From Nannocystis bainbridge (lineage in GTDB: Bacteria > Myxococcota_A > Polyangia > Nannocystales > Nannocystaceae), in contig NZ_JAQNDL010000001.1 in NCBI RefSeq assembly GCF_028368995.1, positions 1,344,001 to 1,408,000 on the forward strand: DNA of 64,000 nt. The letters run 5' to 3'. The translations under genes and the position numbers were made by a program. The first letter of the stretch is position 1. Each line of letters opens with the position of its first letter. Shown in pieces: positions 11,543 through 64,000 of this stretch. The notes below the pieces were generated by a model. The model did not search any database, was not told where the DNA came from, and worked only from the letters and a program-made list of their open reading frames with translations.

Positions 11543-11619
11543 CCTGCCCCTCGGGGCATGTCCTCGAGGTCATGTCCTAAAGCGCATGTCCCCGAGGGCA
11601 TGTCCCCGCGGACATATCC
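11540..11619. repeat. 14-bp-period GGACATGTCC-type array, 6 units, between convergent genes
   Basis: Cores CCTG 11543, CATG 11557/11571/11585/11599, CATA 11613. Confidence 0.9.
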
Positions 11620-17555: not shown

Positions 17556-17587
17556 ACGCCCGCGCAGCCGGCCGCTCGCATGCACAC

Positions 17588-17725
17588 CCGCCCCGCCTGC
17601 ACGGGCTGATTGCGCCGCATCATGACGCTCGACAACGCCGCGATCCCACGCGAGCACCGCCCCGCCTGCGCGGACGGATTGCGCCGCATCATGACGCTCG
17701 CCAACGCCGCGATCCCGCGCGAGCA
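17588..17725. repeat. Tandem duplication of a ~69-bp intergenic unit
   Basis: CCGCCCCGCCTGC at 17588 and 17657; GATTGCGCCGCATCATGACGCTCG at 17608 and 17677. Confidence 0.85.
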
Positions 17726-17989
17726 CCCGCCCCACCGATCGATCGCACCGCTCCACGGCACACTGACAGCGCATCGGGCGACCGTGCGAGCACTCGCCGC
17801 TTCATGACGGGATCGACAGCGCTCGCTCCGCAGATGCCCGCGGTCTCCGGAAAGCCGGGACGCGGGCGACCTCCGCGCAAGCACGCGCTCGAGCCCGCTG
17901 CGCACCCACCCCATCGGGAGCGCGCCCGCCTCCGCAGCGATCGCGTCCCGTCTGTCAGATGAGTGCACCCCTCCGGCTAACCTCGGGGG

Positions 17990-18845: not shown

Positions 18846-18939
18846 GTACATGTCTCCCAGGACATGCCCCTTATCGCATGTCCATCACGACATGTCGCCG
18901 AGGACATGCCCCATGTCGCATGTCCTTCACGCCATGCGA
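18846..18939. repeat. 14-bp-period array, 7 units, between convergent genes
   Basis: CATG at 18849, 18863, 18877, 18891, 18905, 18919, 18933. Confidence 0.92.
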
Positions 18940-20519: not shown

Positions 20520-20604
20520 TCACATGCCTCTTGCGACATGTCCGCCAGGCCAGCAGCGGCCCCGCTCCCGCCGCGGTATTTTCGATGTCTCTCCGGACAT
20601 GTCC
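20520..20604. repeat. Two 2-unit copies of the 14-bp-period motif in a divergent intergenic region
   Basis: CATG 20523/20537; GATG 20584/CATG 20598; a further pair at 20369/20383. Confidence 0.6.
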
Positions 20605-21749: not shown

Positions 21750-21815
21750 GGACATGCTCGATGGAGCATGTTCGATGGGACATGTCGCTTCGGACCTGCC
21801 CTTCGGGGCATGTCG
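21750..21815. repeat. 14-bp-period array, 5 units, between convergent genes
   Basis: CATG 21753/21767/21781, CCTG 21795, CATG 21809. Confidence 0.9.
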
Positions 21816-28509: not shown

Positions 28510-30845
<2,336 letters not shown>

Positions 30846-30849
<4 letters not shown>

Positions 30850-32861
30850 AGTACGTCCTCAAGTCGAGCGCCCCGACGCGCCAGCCCTTCGATCTTTCGC
30901 GCGAGCTCAACCCCCAGCAGCTCGCGGTCGTCGAGGCCGATCCGGGCGAGATCCTCGTGCTCGCCGGCGCCGGCACCGGCAAGACCCGCACGCTCACCTA
31001 CCGCGTCGCCCGCCTGGTCGCCGGCGGCTGCCACCCCGAGCGGATCCTCCTGTGCACATTCACCAATCGCGCCGCGCGCGAGATGGTCGCGCGGGTCGAA
31101 TCGCTGCTCGGCGTCGAGATGCGGCGCTGCTCGGCCGGCACCTTCCACCACGTCGGCAACCGGATCCTCCGCCGCTACGGCGCCGCGATCGGCCTCTCGC
31201 CCGACTTCGGCATCCTCGACCCCGAGGACGCGCGGACCCTGCTCAGCGCCGTGGTCGCGGAGTTCGGCCTGCAGACATTGACCGCGCGCCGGTTCCCGCA
31301 GCCCAAGGTGCTCGCCAACCTGATCAGCCTGGCCGCCAACACCCGCAAGCCGCTGCTGCAGGTGGTCGAGGAGCACGGCCTGCGCCTGCTCGACCAGGCC
31401 GTCATGGTCGAGGAGGTCGCGGTCCGCTTCGCCGAGCGCAAGCGCCACATGAACGTGTGCGACTTCGACGATCTGCTGATCCACTGGCTGCGCCTGCTCG
31501 AGGACCCGCGGCTGACCGAGGTCGCCGCGCTGGTCCGCTCGGCCTACGACCACGTGCTCGTCGACGAGTACCAGGACGTGAGCGCGATCCAGGGCGCGCT
31601 GGTCGACGCCATGGCCAAGGAGCACGGCAGCCTGGTGTGCGTCGGCGACGACGCCCAGTCGATCTACGGCTTCCGCGGCGCCGACTTCGCCCAGATCGCC
31701 GAGTTCCGCGGCCGCCACACCCAGGCCCGGCTGTATCCGCTGACCATCAATTACCGCTCGACGCCCGAGGTGCTCGCGCTCGCCAATCGCAGCATCGCCC
31801 GCAACGTCAAGCAGTACCCCAAGGAATTGGTGGCGGTGAAAAAATCAGGGCCGAAGCCGGCCGTGATCCCGCTGCGCGACGTGTTCCAGCAGGCCGAGTT
31901 CATCGCCCAGCGCGTGCTCGAGCTGCACCACGAGTACGACATGCCGCTGTCGCGCATGGCCGTGCTCTACCGCAACCACTCGCACAGCCTCGAGCTGCAG
32001 GTCGAGCTGACGCGGCGGCAGATCCCCTACACCGTGCGCAGCGGCCTCCGCTTCTTCGAGCAGGCCCACATCAAGGACGTCGTCGCCTACCTGCGCGCGC
32101 GCCAGAACCCGCAGGACAGCCTGTCGTGGATCCGTCTGCTGCGCCTGTGGCCGGGCGTCGGCGCGCAGACGGCCGAGCAGCTGGCGGTGCTCCTGGCCAA
32201 AGAGACAGCCGCGGGCGCCGCCTCGGCCGGGCAGGTGCTGGCCGACCAGGCCGGCCAGGCGCGCGGGCGGGCCAAGCCGGCGCTCGAGCGGCTGGCCGAG
32301 CTGTGGACGATCCTCGAGAACCCCGATCTGCGCAGCCCCGGCGCGATGATCCGCGAGGTCGTCGCCCGCCACTACGGCGAATACACCGACCGCAACTTCC
32401 CCAACGCCGCCGCGCGCAAGGACGACCTCGAGCACCTCGCCGGCTACGCCGAGCGCTACGACGGCGCCAACGAGTTCCTCAGCGAGCTCGCCCTGGTCCA
32501 GGGCATGAGCGCCGAGAACGTGCTCGGCGCCGAGGAGCCCGACGACATGTTGGTGCTGTCGACGGTGCACCAGGCCAAGGGCCTCGAGTGGCCGATCTGC
32601 TTCGTGCTGTGGCTGGCCGAGGGCCGCTTCCCGATGGCCACCGCCGTGCGCGACCCGGCCGATCTCGAGGAGGAGCGGCGCCTGTTCTACGTCGCGGCCA
32701 CCCGCGCCGCCGACGAGCTGTACTGCTGTTATCCGGTGATCGAGGAGAACCGCGACGGGCCGTCGCACATCATGCGCCCGAGCCGCTTCCTGGTCGAGAT
32801 CGATCACAACCCGGCGGTGTTCGAGCGCTGGCAGATCGAAGAGTCGCCGGCGACCGGCTGA
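30846..32861 (+). CDS. UvrD/PcrA/Rep-family ATP-dependent DNA helicase
   Basis: AGAGTGKT, TFTNRAA, DEYQD, VGDDAQSIYGFRGA, NYRS, STVHQAKGLEW, EEERRLFYVAATRA. Confidence 0.95.
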
Positions 32862-32867
32862 CCTCGC

Positions 32868-32933
32868 GCGGATGGCGGCGCGGACATGCTCCCGGGAGCA
32901 TGTCCGATCGCACATGCTCCTTCGGACACACCG
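32868..32933. repeat. 14-bp-period array, 5 units, between helicase and histone 3' ends
   Basis: GATG 32871, CATG 32885/32899/32913, CACA 32927; includes perfect 24-bp palindrome 32882-32905. Confidence 0.9.
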
Positions 32934-33045
32934 AAGATTTGCCGCTCGCTGTGCGGCCGATCTGCCGTGGCGCTCGCCGCAATTATTGCCGGCGGACCGG
33001 GCAATCGTCGGTCACGACATTTCGGCCGGTCGGTCGCCGGGCACG

Positions 33046-33079
33046 AAAAAAGGCCGCCCCGGACGGGAGCGGCCTTTTT
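33046..33079. terminator. Bidirectional intrinsic terminator
   Basis: AAAAAAGGCCGCCCC-GGAC-GGGAGCGGCCTTTTT: GC stem with A/T tails on both sides, between convergent genes. Confidence 0.85.
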
Positions 33080-33113
33080 GTTCGCTGCGTGCGACCCTCG
33101 CGGGTCGGACGGC

Positions 33114-37387: not shown

Positions 37388-37492
37388 TCACCTGTCCCCC
37401 GGTACACATTTTTAAACATGTCCCAAGGGACATGTCTCGAGGGACGCATCTATAAAAAATGTCCCGAGGGACATGTCTCGCAGGACATCCTT
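37388..37492. repeat. 14-bp-period array with ~41-bp internal duplication, about 8 units
   Basis: CCTG 37391, CACA 37405; CATG 37417/37431, CGCA 37445; AATG 37458, CATG 37472, CATC 37486 (two register slips). Confidence 0.85.
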
Positions 37493-39398: not shown

Positions 39399-39464
39399 TA
39401 ACATGCCCCGTAAGACATGTCCTTCAGGACATTCTCAAAAGGACATGTCTTTAAAGTCATCCGC
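39399..39464. repeat. 14-bp-period array, 5 units
   Basis: CATG 39402/39416, CATT 39430, CATG 39444, CATC 39458. Confidence 0.9.
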
Positions 39465-41476: not shown

Positions 41477-41520
41477 ACCATGGGACATGCCCGATCGGGC
41501 ATGCCCTATGAGTCATATCC
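41455..41520. repeat. 14-bp-period array, 5 units, overlapping the kinase stop codon
   Basis: CATG 41458, CATA 41472, CATG 41486/41500, CATA 41514. Confidence 0.9.
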
Positions 41521-46009: not shown

Positions 46010-46334
46010 GCGTCGACGCCGACTCTACACCGCCGCCGTCACCCGCAGTCGCGGCCGCGCCGGCGCTGGCGCCGCGATTACGTTCCCGTTACAACATGTC
46101 CGAAGAATCATGTAGTGACATGCACCGAGGAGGGCGAGGAGAATCCCTCACACCGAAGCGAGTCCCGGGCGAGAACTCTCCCCGACGCTCGACCCGCACG
46201 CCAGATTCTCCGCGCCGCGCGCCACCGCCCGCCCGAGATCGGCCCTCCTGCTGCCGCAGACCGCCGCCTCGGGCTCACCACCCGCGCCGTGCCCCGCTGC
46301 CGCGTTCACCGCCCGGCGATCGACCCAAACTATT

Positions 46335-46400
46335 GTACATGTCCTCATGGACATGTTCTCGTGAGCATGTCCTCGTGAACATGCCCCATAGTACATACTC
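46335..46400. repeat. 14-bp-period array, 5 units (plus a pair at 46095/46109)
   Basis: CATG 46338/46352/46366/46380, CATA 46394. Confidence 0.9.
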
Positions 46401-46406
46401 CGCCGG

Positions 46407-47354
46407 CTAGCGCTCGAAGCGGTGCCCGCAGTTCGCCGGCTTCATCCCGTTCTGCGGCGACCCGAGCCACAGGTCCTCGAGCACCAGCTGCTGCCCCTCG
46501 AGCTTGAACGTGCCCGCTCCGTCGACGTCGGCCGGCACGTAGTTGCCACCGGACGGCACGATCTCGAGCTCGCCCGTCGGCAGGTCGTACGTATAATCGG
46601 ACCAGTAGTCGAAGTAGATCTCGAACGGCAGCCACGTCACCCGTACCTCGCCGCTGGCGCGGAACCACAGCTCCTGGATCGCCACCTCCGGCGCCACCTC
46701 GACCCCGCCGCCGCACGGCAGCTGCGCGACCTCATGCCAAAGGCCGACGAATGGATTCGACTCCGGCGTGTACACGAACACGTCGGTCGTCAGCACCTTC
46801 GCCCCGTCCTCGACGTCGGCCGTGACCGTGAACGTCGCGCCCGGCGCCACGTCGGGCGCGATCGTCAGCTGCCCCGCGGCGTCGATCGAGGCGCCCTCGA
46901 CGGGGCTGATCGAGTAGGCCACACACGCCTCGACCGGCTGCTTGATATAACAACACTCGATCGCGCCGACCGACAGATCCAGCACATCGCCGGGCTTGCC
47001 CTCGTACGCCTGCCCGAACACGTTGAAGCCGAGCGTCATGAGCACCTCCGCGGCCAGCGGCGGCAGCTCGCACACCCCGTCGGTCGTCGCCTCCGTGCTC
47101 GCCTCCGTCGTCGCCGAGGTCACCTCATCCGTCGTCGGGCCCGTCGTCGTCGAGTTCGACGTCGTCGTCGTCGAAGTCGTCGAAGTCGTCGAAGTCGTCG
47201 GCGACGTCGAGCCCGCCGTCGTCGTGCCCTCGTCCGTCGCGGAGCTCGTCGTCGCGGACGTGCTGGCGGTCTCGGTCGCCCCGGTGTCGTCCCCGGAGCC
47301 TTGCGGACACCCGCCCACGACCAGCGCCGACATGAGGATCGCAGCTCGATGCAT
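46407..47354 (-). CDS. Lipoprotein with Thr/Ser stalk and Ig-like/beta domains
   Basis: Lipobox VVGGC; TTSTTS tract (9-bp GTCGTCGAA repeats near 47167-47198). Confidence 0.75.
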   Translation of the reverse strand: MHRAAILMSALVVGGCPQGSGDDTGATETASTSATTSSATDEGTTTAGSTSPTTSTTSTTSTTTTSNSTTTGPTTDEVTSATTEASTEATTDGVCELPPLAAEVLMTLGFNVFGQAYEGKPGDVLDLSVGAIECCYIKQPVEACVAYSISPVEGASIDAAGQLTIAPDVAPGATFTVTADVEDGAKVLTTDVFVYTPESNPFVGLWHEVAQLPCGGGVEVAPEVAIQELWFRASGEVRVTWLPFEIYFDYWSDYTYDLPTGELEIVPSGGNYVPADVDGAGTFKLEGQQLVLEDLWLGSPQNGMKPANCGHRFER

Positions 47355-49562: not shown

Positions 49563-50102
49563 TCAGGAGCAGGTCGAGAGGACGGCGATCTCGGCGCCCA
49601 TCTCCTCGCCGCAGTACCAGTTGTTGCCGTCCTCGTCGCAGCAACCCTGGCCGGTGAGGCCGGTGGTGGCGCACGCATCGCCCTCGACCAGGCCGGTCGG
49701 GCAAGCGATCGGGTTGGTGCCGTCCGGGTCCTCGCCCTCGAAGCCGCAGCTGTAGTAGTTGTCGCGCGGGCTCCAGCCGCACAGCGCACCACCGGTGTCG
49801 GTCGTGGTCGTGGTGGTCGTGGTGGTCGTCGTCGTCGCGTCGGTCGTCGTCGGCGCGGTGGTCGTCGGCGTCGTCTCGGTGCCGTCGGTCCCGTCGGAGT
49901 CCGTCGCGGTGCCGTCGGTCGAGTCGGTGCCCGCGGTCGTCTCGGTCGTCTCGGTCGTTTCGGTGCCGGCCGTGCCGTCGGTGGCGTCGGTCGTCGTGCC
50001 GAGGCTGGTAAAGTTCGTGTCGGTGCCGCCGGTGCTGATCACGCAGCCGGACATCGAACCGGCGACCAGCGCCGCGCCCAAGGTCATCTTGAATGAGTGC
50101 AT
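49563..50102 (-). CDS. Small lipoprotein: Thr-rich stalk plus Cys-rich C-terminal domain
   Basis: Lipobox MSGC; poly-Thr; CGW..YYSCG..C..C..GCCD..WYC..C. Confidence 0.75.
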   Translation of the reverse strand: MHSFKMTLGAALVAGSMSGCVISTGGTDTNFTSLGTTTDATDGTAGTETTETTETTAGTDSTDGTATDSDGTDGTETTPTTTAPTTTDATTTTTTTTTTTTDTGGALCGWSPRDNYYSCGFEGEDPDGTNPIACPTGLVEGDACATTGLTGQGCCDEDGNNWYCGEEMGAEIAVLSTCS

Positions 50103-51770: not shown

Positions 51771-51848
51771 CCCTGTCCGAACGGTCATGTCCCGCTGGAC
51801 ATGCCCGCTCGGCCATGACCCTTCGGTCATGTCTGCCAGAACAGCTTG
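51769..51848. repeat. 14-bp-period array, 6 units, filling the gap between convergent stops
   Basis: CCTG 51772, CATG 51786/51800/51814/51828, CAGC 51842. Confidence 0.9.
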
Positions 51849-55090: not shown

Positions 55091-55156
55091 GGACATGTTC
55101 ATCCGGACATGTCCTGAAGCCTATGTACTTTCGCGCATGCCCGTTCGGACAGCCGG
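55091..55156. repeat. 14-bp-period array, 5 units
   Basis: CATG 55094/55108, TATG 55122, CATG 55136, CAGC 55150. Confidence 0.9.
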
Positions 55157-59521: not shown

Positions 59522-59666
59522 GAACATGTCCTTCTGGACATGTCCTAAAGCCCATCCTGCGACCGGCCGCCGCCGCGGCCCCGCTCCAGGTCGCGCACGC
59601 AGCGCGAATGGCACGGCTGCACACGGATTGTCATGTCTCTCCGGACCTGTCCCGAAGGACATTTAT
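59522..59666. repeat. Two 3-unit copies of the 14-bp-period motif
   Basis: CATG 59525/59539, CATC 59553; CATG 59632, CCTG 59646, CATT 59660. Confidence 0.8.
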
Positions 59667-59808: not shown

Positions 59809-61371
59809 ATGATGACTTCGCGCAATAGAGATAGACACCTTGATTTGTTGGTCGCGGCGATGGCCGTGATGCCGGTGATGGCAGTGGGATGTGGCGACTC
59901 GACCGCGAGCAGCGCCAGCGACTCCGACACGGAGACCGACGGCACCGGCTCCGAGTCCGACACCGACGCCCTGCCGACCACCACCGCGGGCCCGCCCGGC
60001 CCCCCCGGAGAGCCCGGCGAGCCCGGCGAGCCCGGTGAGCCCGGCGAGCCCGGCGAGCCTGGCCCGCCCGGCGAGCCCGGCCCCGGCAGCGACCCGAGCA
60101 TCAGCGGCATCGTCCCCGGCAAGGTCTATCTCGAGCGCACCCTCGACGTGGCGATCAGCGGCTTCGGCACCCAGTGGACCGACGCGGTCGCCGTCGACTT
60201 CGGCGAGAACGTGACCGTCAACAGCGTGACCGTGGCCAGCCCGACCGGCATCCTGGCCAACATCACCGTCGACGCCGGCGCCAGCATCGGCGCGCGCGAC
60301 GTGACGGTCAGCGAGGGCGGCAGCGACGTGGTGTACGCCGGCGCCTTCAAGGTCGAGGCCCCGCTGACGCTGCTGGAGCCGATCACCGGCACCCTCGCGT
60401 CCGGCTCGATCATCGTCGGCGACGCCTTCCAGCACGACATCTCGACCCCGTTCGACACCACCCAGACCGGCGACGGTCTGTTCGAGCCGATCGCCTACCC
60501 GAACATCCTCATCGGCGGCAGCGACCCGGGCATCTACGGCGACATCAACTCGGTCAACCTCTACAGCCTCAACTACCTGCTGTTCGTCGACGTGCCGGTG
60601 GCCGCCGGCACCTACGACGTCGGCGTGCTGAGCGGCCCGGAGGGCTCCGAAATCTCGTCGACGGCCCCGGCCGCGCTCGAGATCGCGGCCCGCGCTCCGG
60701 TCCCGCTGACCGAGGGCAACGAAGAGGTCGGCTCGATCGCCGAGCCGCTCGAGACCCAGCTCTACTCGTTCACCCCGCCGGCCGAGCCGAAGAAGATCAC
60801 CTTCTCGATCGCCTCCGCCGACGCCGAAGCCTCCGCGCGGGCGATCGCCTTGCCGGCCAGCGGCAGCTTCGCCGACCTGATCAAGTTCGACTCCGAGATC
60901 TCGGTCTACACCAACTCGGAGGACCCGTTCTACCTGGTCTACTGGGACAACAGCGGCTACTCGGGCTACGACTTCACGATCAACGTCACCGTCGCCGACC
61001 CGCCCCCGCCGGAGACCGAGCCGAACAACGAGTGCGCGCAGGCCAACGAGCTCACGCTGCCCTCGCTGACCTTCGCCACCCTGCCCGACCAGCAGGACGT
61101 CGACTGGTTCAAGTTCACCGCCACCGACGCCGACATCGGCAAGGTCATCCACGTGCTGACCCAGGCCGGCGACGACACCACCGACACCGTCGTCGAGGTG
61201 TTCGAGGGCGACTGCACCACCTCGCTCGGCGGCCCCTCGAGCGACGACGACTACCACGAGGATTTCACCAGCGAGGCGATCCCCGCCGCCGGTGACTACT
61301 TCGTGAAGGTCACCTACTCGGACTTCGGCTACACCACGCCGAACTACGAGCTCCAGGTCGTGATCGAGTAA
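59809..61371 (+). CDS. Lipoprotein with short collagen-like (Gly-X-Y) segment, Ig-like and PPC-like domains
   Basis: Lipobox AVGC; (GPP/GEP)x10 + GPG at 59989-60087; ETEPNNEC..DVDWF. Confidence 0.82.
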   Translation: MMTSRNRDRHLDLLVAAMAVMPVMAVGCGDSTASSASDSDTETDGTGSESDTDALPTTTAGPPGPPGEPGEPGEPGEPGEPGEPGPPGEPGPGSDPSISGIVPGKVYLERTLDVAISGFGTQWTDAVAVDFGENVTVNSVTVASPTGILANITVDAGASIGARDVTVSEGGSDVVYAGAFKVEAPLTLLEPITGTLASGSIIVGDAFQHDISTPFDTTQTGDGLFEPIAYPNILIGGSDPGIYGDINSVNLYSLNYLLFVDVPVAAGTYDVGVLSGPEGSEISSTAPAALEIAARAPVPLTEGNEEVGSIAEPLETQLYSFTPPAEPKKITFSIASADAEASARAIALPASGSFADLIKFDSEISVYTNSEDPFYLVYWDNSGYSGYDFTINVTVADPPPPETEPNNECAQANELTLPSLTFATLPDQQDVDWFKFTATDADIGKVIHVLTQAGDDTTDTVVEVFEGDCTTSLGGPSSDDDYHEDFTSEAIPAAGDYFVKVTYSDFGYTTPNYELQVVIE

Positions 61372-61500: not shown

Positions 61501-64000
61501 ATGTCGGACGATTCCGCGCCCCTCGGGCTCGACCTCGCCGAAGTCGTCGCCGGCCTGATGCCGCCTGCCTCTTCGGACATGCCCTTGGGGACAGCCTTCT
61601 CGGCCCCGGTGGCGCGGTGGTTCGGCGAGCGGTTCGCCGGCCCGACCGAGGCTCAGCGGCGCGGCTGGGCCGCGATTGGCCGCGGCGAGGACACCCTGGT
61701 CATGGCCCCGACCGGCTCGGGCAAGACCCTCGCCGCCTTCCTCGCCGGCGTCGACGCCCTGGTCCGCCGCGGCCTCGTCGGCGCGCTGCCGGACGGCGTC
61801 ACCATCCTCTACATCTCCCCGCTCAAGGCCCTCGGCGCCGACGTCGAGCGCAACCTGCAACAGCCGCTGCGCGGCATCGAGGCCGCCGCCGCTGCGCTCG
61901 GCACCCCGCTGCCGAAGATCCGCACCGCCCTGCGCACCGGCGACTCGACCGCGACCGAGCGCGCGCGGATCTTGAAGCAGCCGCCGCACCTGCTCATCAC
62001 CACCCCCGAGTCGCTCTACCTGCTGCTCACCTCCGAGCGTGGCCGGGCCGCGCTCGCCGGCTGCCAGCAGGTCATCGTCGACGAGATCCACGCCCTCGTC
62101 GGCAACAAGCGCGGCGCCCACCTGGCCCTCTCGCTCGAGCGCCTCGACGCCCTGTGCGGCCGCAAGCTCCAGCGCATCGGTCTATCGGCCACCGTCGAGC
62201 CGCCGGCCGAGGCCGCCCGCTTCCTCGTCGGACATGTCCTCGAGGCCATGCCCGATCAGACATGCCCTGAAGCCCATGTCCTCGCGGACAGCCCGCGCGC
62301 GCGCCCGTGCCACCTGGTCGACGCCGGCCGGCGCCAGCCGCTCGACGTCGCGGTCGAGGTGCCGCAGGAGACGCTGTCGGCGGTGGCCTCGCGGACCGCG
62401 TGGGACGACCTCTACGCCCGCCTCGAGGCCTACCTCGGCGAGCACCGCACCACCCTGATCTTCGTCCCCAGCCGGCGCCTGGCCGAGCGCATCGCCCACG
62501 ACCTCGAGCAGCGGCTCGGCGAGGGCGTGGTCGCGGCCCACCACGGCGCGCTGGCCAAGCGGACCCGGCAGATGGTCGAGCTCAAGCTGCAGACCGGCGC
62601 GCTCAAGGCCGTGGTCGCCACCGCCTCGCTCGAGCTCGGCATCGACATCGGCGACGTCGAGCTCGTGGTCCAGGTCGGCTCGCCGCGCTCGATCAGCGTC
62701 CTGCGCCAGCGCATCGGCCGGGCCTGCCACTCGGTCGGCGGCACGCCCAAGGGCCGGATCTTCGCCACCACCCGCGACGACCTGATCGAGTGCGCCGCCG
62801 CGGTGCGGGCGATGAAGGAGGGCCGCATCGACCGCCCGGTCCAGCGCGAGGCCCCGCTCGACATCCTCGCCCAGCAGCTGGTCGCCACCTGCAGCGCCGA
62901 GGAGTGGGAGGTCGAGGCGCTGTGGGCCCTGGCCCGCCGCGCCGCCCCCTATGCCACTTTGACGCGCCGCGACTTCGACCAGGTCGTCGCCATGCTCGGC
63001 GACGGCATCGCCACCCGCCGCGGCCGCGCCGGCGCCCTGCTCCACCTCGACCGCATCCACGGCCGCGCCCGCGGCCGCCGCGGCGCCCAGCTGGCCGCCC
63101 TCACCTCCGGCGGGGCTATCCCCGACAAGGCCGACTACACCGTCGTCGAGGACGCCAGCGAGGCCGTGGTCGGCACCGTCGACGAGGACTTCGCGATCGA
63201 CAGCATGGTCGGCGACGTGTTTCGCCTCGGCTCGCACGCGTGGAAGATCCGCCGCGTCGAGGCCGGGCGCGTCCGCGTCGAGGACGCCCGCGGCCAGTCG
63301 CCCGCGATCCCGTTCTGGAACGGCGAGGGCCTGGCCCGCAGCGAGGCGCTGTCGGCCGAGGTCGCGACCTTGCGACATGAACTTTGGGACATGCTCGAAG
63401 GGCAAGCCGACGAGCGCGCCCGCGGCCTGCTGGCCGGCGACTGCGGCCTGTCGCAGCCGGCCATCGACCAGGCGATCGCCTACGTCGCCGAGGGCGCGCG
63501 CGCGCTGGGGGCCGTACCGACCCAGGAGTGCCTGGTCGCCGAGCGCTTCTTCGACGAGGCGGGCGGCATGCAGCTCATCATCCACGCCCCGTTCGGCGCC
63601 CGCATCAACCGCGCCTTCGGCATGGGCCTGCGCAAGAAGTTCTGCCGCACCTTCGACTTCGAGCTGCAGGCGGCCGCCACCGACGACGCGGTGCTGCTGT
63701 CGCTCGGCCCGCAGCACTCGTTCCCGCTCGAGGCGATCTTCCACTTCCTCCACGAGGAGGCGGTCGACGAGGCGCTGACGCAGGCGGCCTTGCAGTCGCC
63801 GATGTGGGAGACCCGCTGGCGGTGGAACGCGACCCGCTCGCTCGCCGTGCTGCGCCACCAGGGCAGCCGCCGGACCCCGCCGCCGATCCTGCGCATGAAG
63901 GCCGCCGACCTGCTGGCGGCCGTGTTCCCGGCCCAGGCCGGCTGCCAGGACAACCACGGCGGCGAGACCATCGAGCCGCCCGACCACCCGCTGGTCCACG
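61501..64000 (+). CDS. lhr: Lhr-family DEAD/DEAH-box helicase, 3'-truncated by window end (absent from ORF track)
   Basis: ATG 61501; PTEAQ, APTGSGKT, YISPLKAL, RTGD, ITTPESL, DEIH, GLSAT, HHG, ATASLELGIDIG, QRIGRA, GGAIPD. Confidence 0.93.
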   Translation, partial: MSDDSAPLGLDLAEVVAGLMPPASSDMPLGTAFSAPVARWFGERFAGPTEAQRRGWAAIGRGEDTLVMAPTGSGKTLAAFLAGVDALVRRGLVGALPDGVTILYISPLKALGADVERNLQQPLRGIEAAAAALGTPLPKIRTALRTGDSTATERARILKQPPHLLITTPESLYLLLTSERGRAALAGCQQVIVDEIHALVGNKRGAHLALSLERLDALCGRKLQRIGLSATVEPPAEAARFLVGHVLEAMPDQTCPEAHVLADSPRARPCHLVDAGRRQPLDVAVEVPQETLSAVASRTAWDDLYARLEAYLGEHRTTLIFVPSRRLAERIAHDLEQRLGEGVVAAHHGALAKRTRQMVELKLQTGALKAVVATASLELGIDIGDVELVVQVGSPRSISVLRQRIGRACHSVGGTPKGRIFATTRDDLIECAAAVRAMKEGRIDRPVQREAPLDILAQQLVATCSAEEWEVEALWALARRAAPYATLTRRDFDQVVAMLGDGIATRRGRAGALLHLDRIHGRARGRRGAQLAALTSGGAIPDKADYTVVEDASEAVVGTVDEDFAIDSMVGDVFRLGSHAWKIRRVEAGRVRVEDARGQSPAIPFWNGEGLARSEALSAEVATLRHELWDMLEGQADERARGLLAGDCGLSQPAIDQAIAYVAEGARALGAVPTQECLVAERFFDEAGGMQLIIHAPFGARINRAFGMGLRKKFCRTFDFELQAAATDDAVLLSLGPQHSFPLEAIFHFLHEEAVDEALTQAALQSPMWETRWRWNATRSLAVLRHQGSRRTPPPILRMKAADLLAAVFPAQAGCQDNHGGETIEPPDHPLVH
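62230..62295. repeat. 14-bp-period array, 5 units, in frame within Lhr
   Basis: CATG 62233/62247/62261/62275, CAGC 62289; further copies at 61564/61578/61592 and 63376/63390. Confidence 0.9.

Follow-up and report, generated by a model that had tools for sequence, protein, structure and literature searches.

The window analyzed in this study is a 64-kb stretch (positions 1,344,001–1,408,000 of contig C1) of the 11.05-Mb genome of Nannocystis bainbridge, which has a G+C content of 71.5% and is distributed over five contigs in an assembly that is 90.5% complete. Within it, an ORF of 671 amino acids belonging to the UvrD/REP helicase family, whose product is 96–98% identical to Nannocystis species records, ends on the plus strand at a TGA stop codon (32859..32861), and an array of short repeats (32882..32933) starts 20 nt past that codon. 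The array consists of three exact CATG cores and a degenerate fourth one (CACA). Its first junction, formed by units 1 and 2 (32882..32905), had been read in the original prediction as a perfect palindrome of 24 nt, and GGACATGCTC-CCGG-GAGCATGTCC does form 10 of 10 Watson-Crick pairs. When 32860–32935 was folded as RNA, an 11-bp hairpin was predicted on the palindrome (minimum free energy −32.7 kcal/mol; z −2.0 with respect to dinucleotide shuffles). The orthologous array is present in five relatives, with an additional 5′ unit that is decayed in this genome. The arms of the junction in these relatives are CGC/GAG, TGC/GAG, TGC/GAT, and CGC/GAA, and only this genome has CTC/GAG. At the second position of the Y-arm (y2), four relatives have G opposite r2 = A, and T is found in this genome alone. 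A single G-to-T change in this lineage perfected the palindrome, and it was directed toward the complement of the partner arm and not toward the consensus C. Among the contigs of related organisms with a likeness of at least 85%, one aligns on either side of 32869–33038 and not across it. The helicase gene faces a short convergent ORF, and in the interval between the two, about 120 nt past the array, there is a bidirectional canonical-looking terminator (A-run, GC-rich hairpin, and T-run; 33040–33080), of which a simple scan recovers the minus-strand half.

The pattern CATG-N10-CATG was found 31 times in the window, while 0.72 matches were expected and none of 100 shuffles reached 31. Two of these matches, at 29741–29764 (CATG at 29744) and 63373–63396 (CATG at 63376), lie within coding sequence, and five relatives have them base for base and equally spaced; they are probably coincidental or codon-constrained, and not members of the family. 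Arrays with four exact cores are located at 11554..11605, 46335..46386, 51783..51834, and 62230..62281. The array at 18846..18939 has seven exact cores and a higher period of 42 bp, and the number and content of its units vary in every relative. At 21750..21815, three exact cores are followed by a degenerate unit with a CCTG core and then by another unit. Two-core dyads were found at 20520..20543, 46092..46115, 55091..55114, and 59522..59545, as well as at 37414..37437 and 39399..39422, where the neighbours are degenerate, and the dyad GGACATGCCC-GATC-GGGCATGCCC at 41483..41506 is preceded by more units from 41455 onward. The other junctions listed in the original prediction read as written, with 9 of 10 pairs at 21750 and 41483 and 8 of 10 at 51811; that at 21792 also has 8 of 10 pairs and includes the degenerate CCTG core. 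CTTC or GAAG had been proposed as a recurrent spacer at six sites; CTTC was in register at five of them (21788, 30122, 32920, 41451, and 51821), and at the sixth, 59653, CGAA occupies the spacer register, with GAAG shifted one base downstream. No Rfam family matched either strand of the window at the gathering score. Unrelated tandem repeats at 17585–17733, 47083–47225, 49801–49994, and 60004–60081, which comprise a 69-bp unit repeated 2.1 times, GTCGTC-type repeats of 9/18 bp, and the 9-bp unit CCCGGCGAG repeated 8.7 times, are probably coding repeats.

Over the whole genome, the spacing of successive CATGs showed a sharp peak at 14 nt (n = 3548), the neighbouring spacings that are not multiples of three having around 65–75 occurrences. 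Chaining of the cores gave 2074 arrays, with two units in 1003, three in 368, four in 279, five in 241, six in 133, and at least seven in 50 of them, and no preference for even or odd unit counts was seen. When degenerate cores were allowed, the length of the arrays in convergent regions was sharply capped, two to seven units being common and the number of arrays falling from 62 with seven units to 7 with eight. The three-unit pattern was present in nine of the ten other genomes of the genus, with 198–279 matches in the large ones and 0–10 in the smaller fragmented ones, and in none of the 20 genomes searched outside the genus. As judged from this distribution, the element is a Nannocystis-specific extragenic palindrome. 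A literature search by title and abstract on intergenic palindromic repeats of Nannocystis or myxobacteria did not find this repeat.

The placement of the arrays was analyzed with respect to about 8100 genes, obtained with a custom and crude GC3-based caller. Arrays of at least four units were located in convergent (388), co-directional (228), and divergent (21) regions and in coding sequence (66), the baseline numbers of convergent, co-directional, and divergent intergenic regions being 1430, 4363, and 1449, respectively. An array was present in 567 of 1210 convergent intergenic regions, and divergent regions were strongly depleted. The median distance of the arrays from the stop codon was 22 nt, and the first unit begins 5–19 nt past it, with a mode of 10–14 nt. 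A TTTT within 20 nt downstream of the array was found in just 2.7% of 641 oriented arrays, so that there is no U-tract. Hairpin-plus-T-run sites were detected by a simple scan in 3–9% of the intergenic regions of the whole genome, in which canonical intrinsic terminators look scarce. The idea that arrays stand in for canonical terminators was discarded, since Rho-independent-terminator-like sites were just as scarce where arrays are present as where they are absent (4.3 vs. 2.9% and 8.6 vs. 5.7%, respectively; not significant).

The anatomy of the unit was deduced from 415 lone two-core elements outside genes. Their information lies in A-CATG-TCC-N4-GGA-CATG-T, with 1.5 and 1.3 bits at positions −1 and 18, respectively, and only 0.04–0.24 bit at the outer arm positions. 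In addition, there were 209 RRRCATGYYY units without a neighbouring core, in comparison with 2825 with one. Both results bear out the earlier proposal that the functional unit spans the spacer (CATGYYY-N4-RRRCATG): the symmetry of the basic unit, the dyad ACATGTCC-N4-GGACATGT, is centred on the spacer and not on CATG. Given that ACATGT is palindromic, the end of one dyad can start the next, and arrays are therefore overlapping dyads in a strict 14-nt register. The commonest spacer of the genome was CTTC (131 occurrences vs. 33.5 expected from independent positions), with GAAG found 78 times. The same proposal had included a tetraloop, and this part did not hold. Genome-wide, the loop or spacer words showed no strand asymmetry, and a preference for UUCG- or GNRA-type loops on the sense strand was rejected (TTCG 34 vs. 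CGAA 34; GAAA 28 vs. TTTC 17, p = 0.14).

In the profile of the lone dyads, a 4-bp centre that is AT-rich and weakly conserved separates two half-sites of 8 bp, both strongly conserved. This arrangement is shared with the palindromic operators of dimeric transcription factors, which likewise have two conserved half-sites and a short, weak, AT-rich centre within a total of 20 bp. It is possible, although in our opinion unlikely, that the dyads are double-stranded DNA sites for a putative dimeric protein, set in a 14-bp register at gene ends, with any covariation being secondary; such a protein might be a roadblock, an insulator, or a topological barrier between convergent genes. The conservation of the core agrees with this explanation, as CATG is kept in 1594 of the 1912 middle cores flanked by two exact cores, and so do the strict phasing, the sharp cap at around seven units, and the absence of strand asymmetry in the spacer words. 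The ACATGT core is conserved far beyond the needs of a structural stem, and this operator-like profile counts against an RNA hairpin. Unlike operators, however, the dyads occupy around 2000 loci at gene 3′ ends and not promoters, as indicated by the low number of divergent arrays given above, and their half-sites show both mirrored deviations and a transcript-polarity bias at the arms, as described below.

Covariation between neighbouring units was assessed in 3736 CATG-N10-CATG junctions, each with six variable stem positions, and the control consisted of shuffling partner arms within replication-strand classes. The mean number of paired stem positions was 3.316 of 6, in comparison with 3.061 in the arm-shuffled controls (z 18.6). 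Perfect 10-bp stems numbered 199 vs. 66.2 in the control, and junctions with at least five of six pairs 719 vs. 452, an excess of about 267 of the 3736 junctions. Complementarity exceeded the expectation from the marginals at y1–r3 (48.4 vs. 43.2%, z 7.8), at y2–r2 (63.0 vs. 59.4%, z 6.8), and at spacer positions 7–10 (31.2 vs. 27.8%, z 4.8), while in the same junctions it was not above expectation at y3–r1 (56.9 vs. 56.3%) nor at spacer positions 8–9. The mutual information at the three inner pairs was only 0.020, 0.014, and 0.0075 bit, the largest value within the element being that of adjacent spacer bases (0.25 bit).

The origin of this excess is informative. Perfect stems in which both arms match the consensus were not in excess (20 vs. 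23.4 in the control), which rules out that both arms are simply well conserved, and the entire excess of perfect stems comes from those with mirrored deviations (179 vs. 47). Stems with one, two, and three such deviations were found 104, 62, and 10 times, in comparison with 32, 12.7, and 2.0 in the control. The probability of r3 = G given y1 = C was 33.7 vs. 22.1%, and non-complementary deviations were not enriched. Thus, the claim that deviations from the consensus are mirrored in the next unit is well founded, as is its reservation that not all junctions co-vary: deviations are mirrored in 20–34% of cases against a baseline of 13–22%, and around two thirds of them are unmirrored. Base pairs are kept by compensatory changes beyond the consensus, with a small effect. 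A symmetric dimer would predict consensus halves and not mirrored deviations, which argues against the protein-site explanation, even though the weakness of the covariation is in its favour.

The signal is confined to adjacent units. The Y-arm of a unit pairs with the R-arm of the following one (inner stem; z 6.4, 4.6, and 0.8) and with that of the preceding one (outer stem; z 8.0, 5.8, and 3.0), with odds ratios between 1.4 and 2.0, and no excess complementarity was found at offsets of ±2, ±3, and ±4 units. Comparison of the positions flanking the spacer with those flanking CATG, as the original prediction had suggested, gave an excess across the spacer and a slight deficit across the own CATG of the unit. 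This deficit was traced to replication-strand compositional heterogeneity, which opposes Watson-Crick covariation, so that the neighbour signal is, if anything, understated. Long hairpins over four units were discarded because there was no complementarity at offset 3, and alternating hairpin pairs along arrays because there was no parity pattern and the correlation between adjacent junctions was not negative (r = 0.007). In the window, after exclusion of the two coding matches, 82.8% of the cells of 29 junctions were paired vs. 78.1% in shuffles, and 18 cells were changed on both sides vs. 8.2; none of 500 shuffles reached either value, although the junctions overlap and are not independent. 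The signal recurred in three relatives. Their 326 junctions, taken from 1.2 Mb of sequence, averaged 3.144 paired positions against 2.897 in the control (z 4.9), perfect stems numbered 14 against 5.5, and here too the excess was confined to adjacent units. Covariation between neighbours is therefore real but small, and it is specific for the neighbour and for the complement.

Covariation depended on the gene context. It was strongest in convergent regions (z 13.8), where perfect stems were 3.6 times the expected number (148 vs. 41), followed by co-directional regions (z 7.4; 47 vs. 23, 2.0 times) and divergent ones (z 3.6; 2 vs. 1.7, 1.15 times), and it was absent from junctions overlapping coding sequence (z 0.4; 2 vs. 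9, 0.2 times). An RNA model predicts this order: a G·U pair on one strand is an A·C mismatch on the other, so that Watson-Crick covariation should be strongest between convergent genes, where the transcripts of both strands would need to fold, whereas in co-directional regions only one strand matters, G·U is tolerated, and Watson-Crick covariation should be weaker. The loss of covariation inside coding sequence is not predicted by sites for a dimeric protein.

The arrays turn over quickly, to judge from the comparison with five relatives whose flanks are around 90% identical, since most orthologous arrays were unalignable and differed in the number and content of units, only single loci being readable. 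Identical spacers were found at offsets of one, two, and three units more often than expected (67 vs. 17, 42 vs. 9.3, and 19 vs. 4.2, respectively), which indicates duplication at 14, 28, and 42 bp. In the regions orthologous to 37414–37437 and 20520–20543, one relative has a module of around 70–80 bp (two units and a degenerate third) repeated about six times, and in another, two units and a GC-rich inverted repeat form a module, about 85 bp long, that is repeated three times; unit pairs therefore spread also within larger tandem modules. Perfect junctions tended to extend past their 24 nt into the flanking spacers (64% of the 199 vs. 35% of all 3736), with extensions of at least 4 nt in 27 of 199 vs. 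150 of 3736, and in 28 cases, against 8.3 expected, the two spacers flanking a junction were reverse complements of each other without a mismatch.

These traits would be expected if covariation were a functionless mutational by-product, with selfish or neutral repeats that grow through slippage and through copying after fold-back or template switching, and with quasi-palindrome correction perfecting neighbouring units. The palindrome at 32882, produced by one change in this lineage, would fit as well, together with the fast turnover and the duplications of 14, 28, and 42 bp. However, a mutational by-product should not depend on gene orientation, and the enrichment in perfect stems does; nor does it predict the tight placement 5–19 nt past stop codons or the sense-strand bias described below. 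For this reason we consider it improbable as a full explanation. Growth by template switching or fold-back, which the original prediction had offered as an alternative, accordingly finds support in the extension of the palindromes into the spacers, but it is insufficient alone because covariation depends on the gene context.

With regard to the strand on which the units would pair, mismatches of the G·U type on the sense strand of co-directional regions outnumbered those of the A·C type (1030 vs. 671, uncorrected). When this count was split by replication strand, the ratio was 199/57 where the sense strand is the leading one and 101/187 where it is the lagging one. Since the two splits are opposite, the raw excess is largely an artefact of the replication strand and was dropped as evidence; only a residual sense factor counts. 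It was obtained by a two-factor analysis of the odds of T:C in Y-arms over A:G in R-arms, limited to inner arms and bootstrapped over arrays. At the stem positions of co-directional arrays within 60 nt of the upstream stop codon, the sense factor was 1.49 [1.33–1.69] toward T/G, that is, G·U-compatible, in comparison with 1.05 [0.91–1.20] in arrays more than 60 nt away. Convergent arrays oriented by the nearer stop codon gave 1.24 [1.14–1.35], and 114 arrays of the relatives gave 1.18 [0.98–1.43]. The factor was 1.03–1.04 in spacers (not significant) and 1.02 in non-repeat intergenic DNA, and a control with random orientation gave 1.005 (standard deviation 0.063, maximum 1.21). Tolerance of G·U in a transcript predicts a sense bias limited to stems, and a symmetric double-stranded site does not, so that the contrast between arms and spacers argues against the dimeric protein. 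The RNA or single-strand reading of the original prediction is in this way supported, as one with transcript polarity. The predicted folds differed little between strands, the sense RNA being just 0.85 kcal/mol more stable than the antisense one (sign split 317/310; Wilcoxon p = 0.06).

The GC skew of this genome is strong: it is about −0.07 on three contigs (C1, C2, and C5) and +0.09 on C4, a value shared by C3 as far as its position 1.5 Mb. Its sign switches near that position and at the end of C1, and genes show almost no strand bias. Toward G/T, the replication-strand factor was 1.54–1.78 in stems, 1.24–1.35 in spacers, 1.18 in non-repeat intergenic DNA, and 1.26 at two-fold codon sites, and in the relatives it was likewise larger in stems (1.57 vs. 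1.16). On the leading strand, A exceeds T in spacers and T exceeds A in stems. These results would favour a hairpin formed not in RNA but in single-stranded DNA, be it a cruciform or a fold of the lagging-strand template while the DNA replicates. Nevertheless, the factor in stems may just reflect that arm positions are free to undergo only transitions, and such a DNA hairpin would leave unexplained both the placement past stop codons and the existence of a separate sense factor, so we judge it very unlikely as the main explanation.

Several known systems resemble the element. The REP, BIME, and REPIN sequences of enterobacteria and pseudomonads are, like it, short, high-copy, imperfect extragenic palindromes clustered 3′ of genes, often arrayed, fast-evolving, and lineage-specific, and the Nannocystis element agrees with the description of REP/REPIN-RAYT systems as high-copy, extragenic, imperfect palindromes of 20–40 nt near gene 3′ ends. 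REP and REPIN sequences are reported to carry a GTAG or CGTC tetranucleotide tag at one end of the palindrome (PMC3733652). The Nannocystis dyad has no such tag, and the flanks of the 415 lone dyads are uninformative beyond A-CATG...CATG-T. In addition, no match to the RAYT family of IS200/IS605-type Y1 transposases (PF01797) was found in its own genome, 90.5% complete, while the same search matched 6 of 14 control genomes. In contrast to BIMEs, the Nannocystis units of 20–24 nt overlap through the shared ACATGT, with a strict 14-nt register and a variable 4-nt spacer, and no family of the linkers that join alternating REPs in BIMEs was found in the Nannocystis arrays, the spacer words being diverse.

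The “Tuberculosis Rho-independent terminator” (TRIT) of Mycobacterium has 147 copies, reported as centred at around −8, inside the coding end (PMC3152330). TRITs and the Nannocystis element are both genus-restricted and well-conserved palindromes found where genes end, each in a genome of high GC content with few canonical terminators; both are mostly bidirectional, lack a U-tract, and are narrowly distributed relative to the stop codon (PMC3152330). The Nannocystis element differs in its genus, in its number and position, with around 2000 arrays starting at +5 to +19, and probably in its sequence, and TRITs are not described as phased tandem arrays (PMC3152330). With canonical intrinsic terminators the element shares a GC-rich hairpin 10–20 nt past the stop codon, but the predicted Nannocystis hairpin has no T-run and the sequence of its stem is conserved. 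The family thus fails the tested defining features of REP/RAYT systems, BIMEs, TRITs, and canonical terminators: it would work like them and is a member of none.

In attention to the above, the explanation that we favour, to which we give about an even chance of being correct, is that the arrays are REP- or TRIT-like gene-end hairpins acting in RNA, whose covariation would be kept by selection for pairing together with template switches that correct palindromes. Located at gene 3′ ends, the elements would be transcribed, and adjacent units are predicted to pair in RNA as stems of 8–10 bp with a 4-nt loop and no U-tract. These hairpins may define or protect mRNA 3′ ends, by blocking 3′–5′ exonucleases or by aiding termination, in what seems to be a genome with few canonical intrinsic terminators. 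Alternatively, they may interfere with ribosomes terminating around 12–15 nt upstream; in this regard, REPs located within 15 nt of a stop codon have been reported to stall ribosomes and to lower translation (PMC12306157). Under selection for pairing, with probable help from the template-switch correction of quasi-palindromes, a deviation in one arm would return as its complement in the neighbouring arm. Besides the conservation of the core, some observations count against an RNA hairpin: there is no tetraloop or strand preference in the loops, the quality of the junctions does not alternate along arrays, and the effect is small. Nor does an RNA model require the strict 4-nt gap that separates the putative hairpins, though overlapping dyads explain it.

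A more far-reaching version of the RNA hairpin, which we put forward only tentatively and regard as rather doubtful, is that canonical terminators have for the most part given way to a self-propagating “zipper” hairpin specific to the genus. Overlapping ACAUGUCC-N4-GGACAUGU dyads would pair in any adjacent register and in either transcript and would mark about half of the convergent gene pairs, a dedicated factor would recognize the conserved ACAUGU stem base and read the dyads in RNA, and pairing would also shape the evolution of the arrays on the lagging-strand template.

The signals that mark gene ends in high-GC bacteria without U-tract terminators are poorly understood, and the genus Nannocystis is known for its very large genomes and its natural products. 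With around 2000 loci and a presence at nearly half of the convergent gene pairs, the family described here is abundant enough to be the main gene-end mark of the genus. Neighbour-only covariation, dependence on gene orientation, and polarity bias together lead from the description of a repeat to a testable hypothesis, that of an RNA hairpin. The analysis also gives a methodological caution, given that raw strand counts of G·U vs. A·C mismatches were mostly replication skew and both effects must be separated. If its function were confirmed, the element could provide a compact, bidirectional 3′-end module for myxobacterial expression constructs.
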